Shown here in pieces: positions 30,762 through 33,557 of a stretch of DNA of 35,321 nucleotides (its first letter is position 1; the number at the start of each line of letters is the position of its first letter). This DNA is from a virus. Lineage: Duplodnaviria > Heunggongvirae > Uroviricota > Caudoviricetes. The position numbers and the translations under genes were made by a program. The stretch lies in IMG/VR virus record IMGVR_UViG_648276647_000008; one strand, written 5' to 3'. Below the pieces are notes generated by a model, which saw nothing but the letters and a program-made list of their open reading frames with translations, ran no database searches and was not told the DNA's origin.

Positions 30762-33346
30762 AAGAGCTGTGCTATGGATCTGTTTGCAGTGGAATTGAAG
30801 CCGCGAGTATTGCCTGGGAACCGTTGGGTATGCGTCCGGCGTGGTTTGCTGAAATCGAGCCTTTTCCATCTGCCGTTCTTGCGCACCGCTGGCCCCATGT
30901 CGCCAACCTTGGCGACATGACAAAACTTGCCAAAAAAGTCCTGGCTGGGGAAATCGAATCCCCTGATGTGCTCGTCGGGGGAACACCTTGTCAGGCATTC
31001 AGTATCGCTGGATTACGTGGTGGGCTTGATGATGAGCGTGGCGCGCTAACTTTAAAGTATGTGGAGCTTGCAAATGCAATTGACGACAAACGGGCTGAGT
31101 CATTTCTCAAACCAGCCGTTATCGTCTGGGAAAATGTCCCAGGAGTCTTGTCATCGGCAGATAACGCCTTCGGATGTTTCCTTGCCGGATTGGCTGGAGA
31201 AGATGCGCCATTTGAACCAGGTGATCGACCTGAATCAGGAAAAAGTAACGCGTTCTGGCGGTGGGATGGTAAAACCGGTTGCCATGCTCCAAAGTGGCCG
31301 CAGTGTGGTTGTATTTATGGACCGCAGCGAAAGGTGGCCTGGAGAATCCTTGATGCCCAATACTTCGGAGTGGCACAACGACGCCGACGCGTGTTTGTTG
31401 TCGCAAGTGCTCGAACAGACCTCGATCCCGCAACGGTACTTTTTGAGTTCGAAGGCGTGCGCCGGGATATTGCGCCGAGCAGAGGCGAGGGGAAGGAAGT
31501 TGCCGGAAATGTTGGAAATGGCATTAAAAGCGGGAGCCATTGGGATAACCCTGTAAATCCGCACCCGACACTTAACCAGTCACACAATACTGGCGGGATC
31601 GGCGCAAGTAACCAGGAGATTTTTGCGCAGCGCGGAAGTGGGCTTGTTGGTGCTTATCGAATGGTTGCATTTGGCGAATATGCTGATGATGAGACTGCTT
31701 CTACTGTCAAGGCCAGAGATTTTAAAGATGCAACCGATTTAGCAGTTTTCAGTAGTACTGGTGCTGGTATTTGGCGTGAAGGTGCAGGCACTCTTCGTGC
31801 CAGAGCACAAGAAAGTCACGAACATCTGGCAGTGATGGCTATTCATGGAACACAAGATCCTGATGTTAATTGTGAATTGGCACATACTATTGGTCGTAAC
31901 CATGGTCAAGAAAATGCAGTCGTAGCTTTTTCCTGCAAAGATTATGGACAAGATGTTTCTATTGAATGTTCTCCGACTTTACGATCTGGTAATACTGTTA
32001 ATAGCAATCCAAATGCAGGATGCCCACCAGCTGTTGCGTATTCGCTACAACATGCACAAATTGGGCGAAAAGATGATGCTGGACCGCAGGGTAAAGGGTG
32101 GCAAAAAGAGATAAGTTTCACTCTTGATTCCCGCGCTACAGCTGACGCCGTTGCGTTATCTTTTGGGGGGCAGAAAAGTATTGAAAAAGGCGAATTAGGT
32201 GATAATGGTTACTTACCTCATATGATGAGTGTTCGCCGTCTTACCCCTGTCGAATGTGAAAGGCTGCAAGGTTTTCCTGATGGGCATACGTTGATCCCGA
32301 CGGAAAAGCGTAAAAAAGTTAATTCAGATGAACTGGCATATCTTCGCAATCACTATCCAGATTTAAGCGAAGAAGAGGCCGCGATGCTTGCAGCTGACGG
32401 ACCGCGTTACAAAGCGATCGGCAATAGTATGGCAATACCAGTAATGCGCTGGATTGGCGATCGGATTACTAAGGCCGTATGTCGGCAGAAAGAAGGAAGT
32501 GAAACAAAAGAGCGAAAAGTTAAACCAGCGGCAGAATTCGAACGGTCCATATTCAAATGGGCCGGTGGAAAATTTGGTGTTCTGGAACAAATCTTTCGCT
32601 ATTTGCCAGAAGGGAAGCGCCTGATTGAACCTTTCGTCGGTGGCGGAGCTGTCTTCATGAATGCCGGATACCAGGAAAATCTGCTAAATGATGTGAATGC
32701 TGACCTGATTAACTTTTACAAGACTCTGCAACGCGAGGAGCATTCACTTATCACTCTGGCACATCGTTTTTTCCTGGACTACAACACCCAGGAGGGATAC
32801 TTGGCAGTACGGAATGCGTTTAACAAACAAGTCTATGATGATTTACATCGCGCAGCGGCGTTTTTGTTCCTGAACCGACATTGTTTTAACGGATTGACGC
32901 GCTACAACCAGGCCGGTGAGTTCAATGTCGGTTATGGGAAGTATAAAACTCCGTATTTCCCATTACAGGAGATGGAAGCCTTCCTCGGTGCGGAAGGGCG
33001 GTCTGAGTTTGTATGCGGTGATTTTGCAGCAGTGATTGAAGCTGCCGGAGAAGGAGATGTCATCTTTTGCGATCCGCCGTATGAACCGCTCCCCAATACA
33101 GAGGGGTTCACGAACTATTCCGGTCATGACTTTAAGTTTGAAGAGCAAAAACGCCTGGTGTCTCTGTTGACGGATGCTCATCGCCGAGGTGCAAAGGTAC
33201 TCATTACTAACAGTGGCGCGCCAAACGTCAGAGAACTTTATCAGGACAGAGGCTTCAGAGTGGAACCTCTCTTTGCCAGACGTTCTGTGTCTTGTAAGGG
33301 AGACACTCGTGGTGTTGCTCATGACGTTATGGCTATATTGCTCTAA
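30758..33346 (+). CDS. dmt: Bifunctional DNA methyltransferase: N-terminal C5-cytosine MTase fused to C-terminal Dam-like N6-adenine MTase
   Basis: 862-aa ORF, GTG start overlapping the hrdC stop. C5-MTase motifs ([34 protein letters not shown]) then Dam motifs (FKWAGGK, DPPY). No adjacent restriction endonuclease gene. Confidence 0.85.
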
Positions 33347-33353
33347 TAAATTT
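33337..33353 (+). promoter_or_regulatory. Perfect C1-operator-like 17-mer (ATTGCTCTAATAAATTT) overlapping the dmt stop, within a 16-bp palindrome
   Basis: 17/17 match; CTAATAAATTTATTAG is a perfect palindrome, so a second, partly overlapping inverted half-site is present. Confidence 0.55.
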
Positions 33354-33530
33354 ATTAGTGTAATATCGCCTCAATGAATCGTGATTTATAGAGCGATTTA
33401 GCTGTTAGCCGCGACAGGCGCGGCGGCAAGTATGGCGGGGTAGTGACTCCTTCCCCCTCATGACGCCGAGTTGCCAGGTTGACCATACGCCTAAGTGGCA
33501 ACACCGAAGTGCGTTACGAGCTTCCAGTTT

Positions 33531-33557
33531 GCCCATCTTCGGGTGGGCGTTTTTTTC
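33531..33557 (+). terminator. Intrinsic terminator (7-bp stem, UUCG tetraloop, T7 tract)
   Basis: GCCCATC-TTCG-GGTGGGC followed by GTTTTTTT, read directly from the sequence. Confidence 0.7.

Follow-up and report, generated by a model that had tools for sequence, protein, structure and literature searches.

The interval immediately downstream of dmt in IMG/VR record IMGVR_UViG_648276647_000008, a 35,321-nt stretch of Caudoviricetes DNA (hereafter the window), is probably the control region and 5' leader of a P1/P7-type ban operon, from which both a terminated leader RNA and read-through transcripts would be made; we put the probability of this reading at about 0.6. The interval spans positions 33337-33557 and contains a domain that, judged from its conservation and covariation, appears to be a separate, widespread, structured RNA without an Rfam family. 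Because positions 33250-34100 are 98.9% identical to phage P7 and 96.5% identical to P1, with matches in 20 P1-type phage records, and because full-length copies of 33365-33600 occur in 494 Escherichia coli records, nearly all of them plasmids of ~90-100 kb, the window can be assigned on sequence grounds to a P1/P7-type plasmid prophage.

The domain lies at 33405-33513 on the plus strand, where covariance model R1 finds its one copy in the window at full length (103.7 bits, E ~1e-23), a match that is partly by construction, as the seed alignment of R1 included the window sequence. Copies were gathered from IMG/VR contigs, GTDB species genomes and phage records. The fold obtained with RNAalifold consists of a first hairpin, H1 (33409-33413 with 33419-33423), then helix A (33424-33427 with 33465-33468) enclosing a second hairpin, H2 (33437-33440 with 33453-33456; loop UAGUGACUCCUU), and finally H3 (33470-33476 with 33496-33502), whose 19-nt loop (33477-33495; consensus GGUUGACCAURCGCYURAG) is nearly invariant across the family. 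The H2 loop retains a pyrimidine motif, either UCCUU or UCCUC. To this fold we added a candidate pseudoknot (33430-33435 with 33483-33488), in which GYAUGG in the internal loop of helix A would pair with CCAURC in the H3 loop. A GC-rich hairpin quoted in a preliminary description of the interval (GCCGCG-ACAGG-CGCGGC, 33408-33424) proved to be H1 of this conserved domain.

Support for the structure comes from covariation, not from fold energy. Pairs were counted in 74 distinct sequences aligned to the covariance model, to which the nested helices, but not the pseudoknot, had been fitted: 97.9% of cells were paired, and changes on both sides were seen in 7 of 26 pairs. None of 500 shuffles matched the family in the percentage of paired cells, in double-change counts or in covariation score, only 33-56% of cells paired when the structure was slid, and a MAFFT alignment agreed with the covariance-model alignment on pairing. 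H2 alone occurs as CGGGG/CCCCG, CTGGG/CCCAG, CCAGGTG/CACCTGG and CCCGGG/CCCGGG. The inner pair of helix A is C-G in the window and U-A in most copies, and one pair of the pseudoknot is C-G in P1 and U-A in most copies. Between P1 and P7, identity falls to 84% in the domain patch, compared with 97-99% in the flanks, with pairing kept; the window carries the P7 version of the H2 hairpin whereas that of P1 is a compensated variant, and the differences between P1 and the window in H2, helix A and the pseudoknot are compensatory. Lambdoid copies additionally have a closing helix, P0 (GUUGUGGY/RYCRCAAC), which shows C-G to U-A covariation. The CACAAC motifs, considered as a possible AgvB-like sponge for GcvB, are the 3' strand of P0, and this candidate was rejected; AgvB itself sits elsewhere in prophages (PMC7873438). 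By inspection, no alternative, riboswitch-like pairing between the domain and the terminator arms was conserved between P1-type and lambdoid copies.

The domain is found well beyond P1-type phages. Among 5426 complete E. coli genomes, BLAST returned chromosomal relatives only for 33409-33506 (~82% identity; 4424 genomes), with a median of two domain-like places per genome. Other hosts include Shigella, E. albertii, E. ruysiae, Citrobacter, Trabulsiella and Erwinia tracheiphila, and Salmonella phage F1055 and a phage submitted as an Actinobacillus phage carry the domain too. Copies in K-12-type and O157 genomes lie between ydfC and dicB and end 24 nt upstream of DicF. In lambdoid phages the domain belongs to the early-left operon, where it comes after the repressor gene and ahead of kil or dicB, recombination genes or an rdgC homologue; in phage Ayreon (L148), for example, a near-consensus promoter at 3673-3700 is followed by the domain at 3997-4104 and by genes on the same strand at 4283-7385. 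Each phage has one copy of the domain. A scan of the 130 nt downstream of the domain found a terminator hairpin in 66 of 70 distinct downstream sequences, with the U tract 47-94 nt past H3 (47 nt in the window). The other four look like misses of the scan: one has four U's, one has a terminator ~100 nt away, and in two the stretch ends early, before any U tract. The 28 distinct terminator hairpins comprise canonical DicF, variants below the Rfam threshold and an unrelated P1-type hairpin. In phage vB_Apl-pPE4 (L126 3085-3265), the terminator module that follows the domain occurs twice in tandem, the two near-identical copies measuring ~97 nt each.

On its upstream side the leader begins with a repressor-binding region. 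The 17-bp operator-like motif and the 16-bp palindrome that had been noted at the dmt stop are both there, and the motif is an exact C1 operator. This site, Op72a (Obana; ATTGCTCTAATAAATTT, 33337-33353, plus strand), agrees with the 17-bp asymmetric consensus at every position, overlaps the TAA stop (33344-33346) of the dmt open reading frame (ORF; 30758-33346), and has the same sequence as a protein_bind feature of the P1 record (AF234172 / NC_005856; L001 2587-2603) and as the P7 operator. It is overlapped by an inverted copy with two mismatches, Op72b (Obanb; ATTACACTAATAAATTT, 33348-33364, minus strand), which accounts for the perfect palindrome CTAATAAATTTATTAG at 33342-33357. The bivalent arrangement is thus present: two overlapping inverted C1 sites, overlapped in turn by the sigma-70 promoter P1ban (33338-33366, plus strand; -35 TTGCTC at 33338-33343, a 17-nt spacer and -10 TAATAT at 33361-33366). 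The promoter is identical in sequence to the 'sigma 70 promoter P1ban' of the P1 record (L001 2588-2616) and was missed by a generic consensus scan because its -35 hexamer is too weak. Placed from the position of the -10, its transcription start would fall at about 33373-33374. A second promoter, P2ban (33321-33352, plus strand; -35 at 33321-33326 and -10 at 33347-33352), was placed by alignment with the P1 record, which lists it as a predicted feature. Allowing up to three mismatches, the C1 motif occurs at five sites in the window where 0.19 would be expected, a number that none of 100 shuffles reached. The three other C1-operator-like sites are on the plus strand, with one or two mismatches, at 12742-12758, 14794-14810 and 29491-29507.

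The P1 record annotates monovalent Obana and Obanb (formerly Op72a/Op72b) and a divalent Obanab that 'controls expression of ban', and the P7 record (AF503408), under Op(ban), assigns control of the tRNA genes and ban to the same pair of operators. These annotations establish the identity of the operators and the promoter, and by them C1 binding at Op72ab is expected to repress the downstream operon. The repressor-gated unit, composed of C1 operator, Pban, 'dicF-like' leader and terminator, is therefore an already annotated feature of P1 and P7, and it evidently serves the tRNA cluster as its leader. The P1 operon passes through tRNA-Asn, tRNA-Thr, the plp/upl segment (on the opposite strand) and tciABC with tRNA-Ile to ban, ~2.6 kb downstream. 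The window shares with P1 and P7 the operator and promoter sequence, the placement next to the dmt end, the terminator and the downstream tRNA-Asn and tRNA-Thr; further downstream it has tRNA-Ser and an insertion sequence, as do D6-type relatives, whereas P1 has the plp/upl segment there. The preliminary description was right in outline. Its proposals of repressor gating and of a leader role for the tRNA cluster hold by homology to the P1 and P7 annotation, and its discrete small RNA is plausible by analogy with sRNA-17 (below); it overlooked the bivalent operator, the existing P1 annotation of operator, promoter and 'dicF-like region', and the shared structured domain.

At the other end of the leader, an intrinsic terminator at 33530-33556 (plus strand; UGCCCAUC-UUCG-GGUGGGCG, then U7) begins 177 nt past the operator end, as expected from the 7-bp stem, UUCG loop and T7 originally described ~180 nt downstream. 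The stem (33530-33537/33542-33549) has eight pairs, five of them G-C, when the closing U.G is included, or seven when counted as GCCCAUC/GGUGGGC; the T7 run is at 33550-33556, and the energy of the hairpin is about -16.6 kcal/mol. Terminator-like matches are not enriched in the region (three found, 2.3 expected). The hairpin is kept in all P1-type relatives, including D6, and in P1 it is the only strong same-strand terminator from Pban to ban. D6 itself has neither the domain nor the P1-type operator, and carries the same terminator and tRNA genes behind a different leader, for which no homologues were found among phages. The stem is preceded immediately by UUU and ends in the U7 tail, which together make the type of 3' end typical of Hfq-binding small RNAs. 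Between the domain and the terminator, the minimum free energy fold includes a small hairpin (GAAGU...GCUUC, 33506-33524, plus strand) that is found in P1-type relatives only.

Taken together with the annotation, this anatomy suggests how the unit would work. In the lysogen, C1 on the bivalent Op72ab would block P1ban. When C1 is lost, transcription would start near 33373, copy the folded domain (33405-33513) and reach the terminator (33530-33556). One product would be a discrete structured RNA of ~185 nt ending at the terminator, by analogy with sRNA-17 and the DicF precursor; in P1 such an RNA would correspond to the 'domain plus terminator hairpin' RNAs from lambdoid early operons. The other would be read-through transcripts carrying tRNA-Asn, tRNA-Thr and tRNA-Ser and, beyond the window, the tci genes and ban. 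As read-through transcripts would carry these downstream genes, the terminator may also serve to attenuate the operon and so set how strongly it is expressed. In such a scheme the short RNA would accumulate, read-through would be partial, and the RNA might have a role in trans.

The closest experimental parallel is sRNA-17 of E. coli K1 RS218, a 193-nt RNA defined by 5'/3' rapid amplification of cDNA ends and Northern blot; it belongs to a mEp460-type prophage, and its expression was reported in the lysogen under ArcA control (PMC7719688). According to the published primers it begins CGTTGTGGTGAATGC and ends GGTACCAG...CTGGTACCGCTCTTTT (PMC7719688), which correspond to the beginning of such a cassette and to its terminator. 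Its 3' module is the module that follows the conserved domain in Ayreon, and since the RS218 'promoter' primers match the Ayreon sequence between the early-left promoter and the domain, sRNA-17 would lie in the same early-left leader. It has a P0-type closing helix (GUUGUGAUGA / UCAUCACAAC); in the copy carried by the P1-type phage RCS47, the sRNA-17 5' end lies at the place of the closing-helix 5' strand and finds its match in UCAUCACAAC, where the domain ends. Copies of the sRNA-17 domain are found in the ban leaders of RCS47 and JL22, both P1-type, just past tRNA-Thr, with 100% identity over the 50-nt Northern-probe sequence tested. We regard sRNA-17 as another cassette of the same design, in which domain and terminator accumulate as one RNA. 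It resembles the P1-type element in architecture and genomic position, with a DicF-like terminator hairpin coming after a folded domain, and differs from it in that (i) its internal domain has a different sequence from the conserved domain, (ii) only sRNA-17 has the P0-type helix, and (iii) it is associated with ArcA and not with a C1 operator. P1-type ban leaders and lambdoid early-left operons thus appear to share a set of exchangeable RNA cassettes.

Several points weigh against our reading of the interval as a ban leader that yields a terminated RNA and read-through transcripts. Fold prediction, one of the checks proposed in the preliminary description, gave a single-sequence energy that was unexceptional (z = -1.5), next to the covariation-supported fold of the family alignment. 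P0 is absent from all P1-type copies, though present in lambdoid copies and in sRNA-17. No P1 or P7 transcript data were found, and a P1vir transcriptome preprint omits the locus. An RNA acting in trans would need a target, and none has been identified. Finally, a strong terminator stands between the promoter and ban, and a leader of this kind does not explain the means of read-through; because an efficient terminator would leave little ban made, something must allow transcription to continue.

That last difficulty would disappear if the domain were a cis-acting processive antiterminator, functionally like the put RNAs of phage HK022, whose nascent fold modifies RNA polymerase so that it passes the terminator that follows. 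Distal genes could then be expressed, namely ban in P1-type phages and dicB, kil and recombination genes in lambdoid phages. The strong terminator between Pban and ban fits such a context, as does the constant placement of the domain close to the 5' end of an early operon under repressor control, a terminator following it wherever the scan resolved one. The sequence of that terminator and the genes beyond it vary while the domain stays, each phage has a single copy, and P1 acquired the core domain alone, without DicF. In Ayreon, the same-strand genes at 4283-7385 need transcription through this terminator and a second one. No N- or Q-type factor is known from P1. The ORFs between promoter or repressor gene and domain in a Stx2c/Ayreon-type phage, Qin, an O157 prophage and F1055 matched no PHROG family annotated as an antiterminator, and in pPE4 there is no plus-strand ORF between the repressor gene and the domain. 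Phages with put, identified by BLAST with putL, and phages with the domain form disjoint sets. Like the domain, putL and putR of HK022 are folded RNAs of ~75-100 nt near the start of early operons, with terminators after them, in phages without N, and put and the domain each have two adjacent stem-loops with a tertiary contact, a candidate one in the domain (put: PMC9378689). Action on RNA polymerase through the beta' zinc-binding domain belongs to put, however, and we detected no relation of sequence or structure between the two: R1 has no match in the putL/putR (immunity) region of HK022. A 9-mer, GCGCGGCGG, and in P1 an 8-mer, ACCATGCG, are shared with putL (shuffle P ~0.03-0.14 for most family members), but these two words are absent from putR and only marginally unusual. 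Homology to HK022 put was therefore rejected, with R1 missing HK022 and putR sharing nothing. Moreover, D6 keeps the same terminator without the domain, and sRNA-17-type cassettes have a different domain in the same place. Antitermination, a candidate function drawn from context, is accordingly one we hold to be unlikely, though the least unlikely of the alternatives, and the proposal that the family represents undescribed pseudoknotted phage RNAs, a second put-like class unrelated to put itself, is equally tentative. If true, it would explain how lambdoid phages without N and the P1 ban operon express genes past strong terminators.

The remaining alternatives fare less well. The domain could be a functionless remnant, left behind when a P1 ancestor recombined with a lambdoid prophage, which would leave the unit as a promoter, a leader and a leaky terminator. 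The lambdoid homology is indeed a short patch (33409-33506) between unrelated flanks, D6 manages without the domain, and P1-type leaders are mosaics of exchangeable pieces. Yet the differences between P1 and P7, concentrated as they are in this patch, leave the pairing of H2, helix A and the pseudoknot intact, and the loops are near-invariant across Escherichia, Citrobacter, Trabulsiella and Erwinia; because of the compensatory changes, a functionless scar is improbable. Less credible still is that the interval is a homologue of DicF, the small antisense RNA that blocks ftsZ translation. This idea draws on the P1 record, which labels L001 2711-2812 (approximately 33461-33562 of the window) a 'dicF-like region', and on the placement of the interval relative to the conserved domain, which is that of DicF in Qin. 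DicF, however, is absent: the Rfam DicF model (RF00039; gathering score 48 bits) had no match in 32800-35321 even at E <= 10, whereas the Qin DicF used as a positive control scored 76.7 bits. The sequence past the patch (33507-33625) aligned locally to spacer plus DicF with a score that 232 of 1000 shuffles reached, and the terminator hairpin (GCCCAUC...GGUGGGC) bears no relation to the GGCGG...CCGCC hairpin that DicF variants have. RNAduplex gave no signal of pairing with the ftsZ leader (271 of 300 shuffles were equal or better), in a weak test that barely separates true DicF from shuffles, genuine DicF being matched or beaten by 37 of 300. With no Rfam match and a 3' module that aligns at shuffle level, identity with DicF was rejected. 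What the Qin DicF locus (dicB operon) and its lambdoid variants do share with the P1-type leader is a homologous ~100-nt domain (~82% identity, same helices), followed by a terminator hairpin, in an early operon under a prophage repressor. The P1-type locus differs in lacking DicF RNA and P0, in having an unrelated terminator module, and in that its domain begins ~30 nt from the promoter, whereas the Qin and lambdoid domain comes after several small genes. As the part past the patch aligns to DicF no better than shuffles do, the label in the P1 record seems to reflect likeness to the sequence upstream of DicF and not to DicF, and is imprecise. That the interval encodes a small protein is the least probable reading of all. 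Short ORFs overlap it on both strands, and some relatives annotate a 'hypothetical protein' there; but, in keeping with the tiny ORFs first described, only short ones do so, and no frame is open across the family (no plus-strand frame is open in more than 7 of 79 distinct sequences, and the best one on the minus strand is open in 56). Variation also falls in paired positions with pairing kept, and insertions and deletions in H2 are not all multiples of three. Protein coding was ruled out for want of a family-wide open frame.

The Rfam covariance-model scan proposed at the outset was run as well. In 32800-35321 it returned two tRNAs and tRNA-Ser, with no family on the leader interval, and Rfam scans of the window, Qin and other copies found no family that matches the domain.

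Further pieces that resemble these cassettes lie downstream of the leader. A segment of ~100 nt at 34479-34595 starts with TTGTGGTGAATGCaCAGGCTGATGtGC, of which 25 of 27 bases equal the sRNA-17 5' end, and contains a perfect 9-bp helix, apparently a closing helix, between ATTGTGGTG (34491-34499) and CACCACAAT (34585-34593). This helix ends 3 nt upstream of tRNA-Ser (34597-34683), so that the segment resembles another structured cassette placed before a tRNA rather than before a terminator hairpin; the segment is also present in P1 (L001 3720-3830), there without the tRNA. A 16-nt exact direct repeat, GCACAACAGGTAAGGG, occurs at 33737-33752 and 34176-34191, 439 nt apart. Its second copy pairs with CCCTTACCGTTGTG (34184-34196 with 34245-34257) in a hairpin that encloses a T-arm-like GGGTTCGAATCCC, which may be left over from a tRNA, and this repeat also brackets the sRNA-17 cassette of RCS47 (L152 1160-1400). 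CACAAC and GTTGTG motifs may mark cassette borders or processing sites. At 34779-34830, GGTGAATGCGGCTAAGCGCACGCGG is nearly identical to the sequence past DicF in lambdoid prophages (L003 3198-3222), where it is the start of a sub-threshold Rfam match to STnc100; it may be a further piece common to P1-type and lambdoid leaders. The 65 nt just past tRNA-Ser (34708-34772) recur, at 97-98% identity, on many E. coli chromosomes at sites that carry no annotation. The plp/upl genes (P1, L001 3392-3961; RCS47, L152 1282-1893) are annotated on the opposite strand, over structured RNA cassettes of the operon strand, and in RCS47 the stretch overlies the sRNA-17 domain; the status of plp and upl as genes may merit re-examination.

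Likeness to other P1-type plasmids stops at ~34856, and an ORF from 35037 runs off the window. From its N-terminal sequence we take this ORF to be an IS110-family transposase. IS110 elements encode a bridge RNA in a place equivalent to the ~180 nt that separate the ORF from the apparent insertion border. Upstream of the leader, the dmt ORF (30758-33346) amounts to 862 aa from its first start codon (GTG at 30758). Among P1-type phages this methyltransferase gene differs in length, being annotated with 754 aa in P1, 672 aa in P7 and 1095 aa in RCS47.

These results correct the 'dicF-like region' of P1: what the label covers would be a separate RNA domain, supported by covariation, that lies ahead of DicF-type terminators in thousands of prophages. 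Among the exchangeable RNA cassettes to which it appears to belong, only DicF and sRNA-17 have been studied. If the domain controls read-through, or regulates in some other way, it would bear on how prophages without N express their early operons and on how DicF-type RNAs are made.

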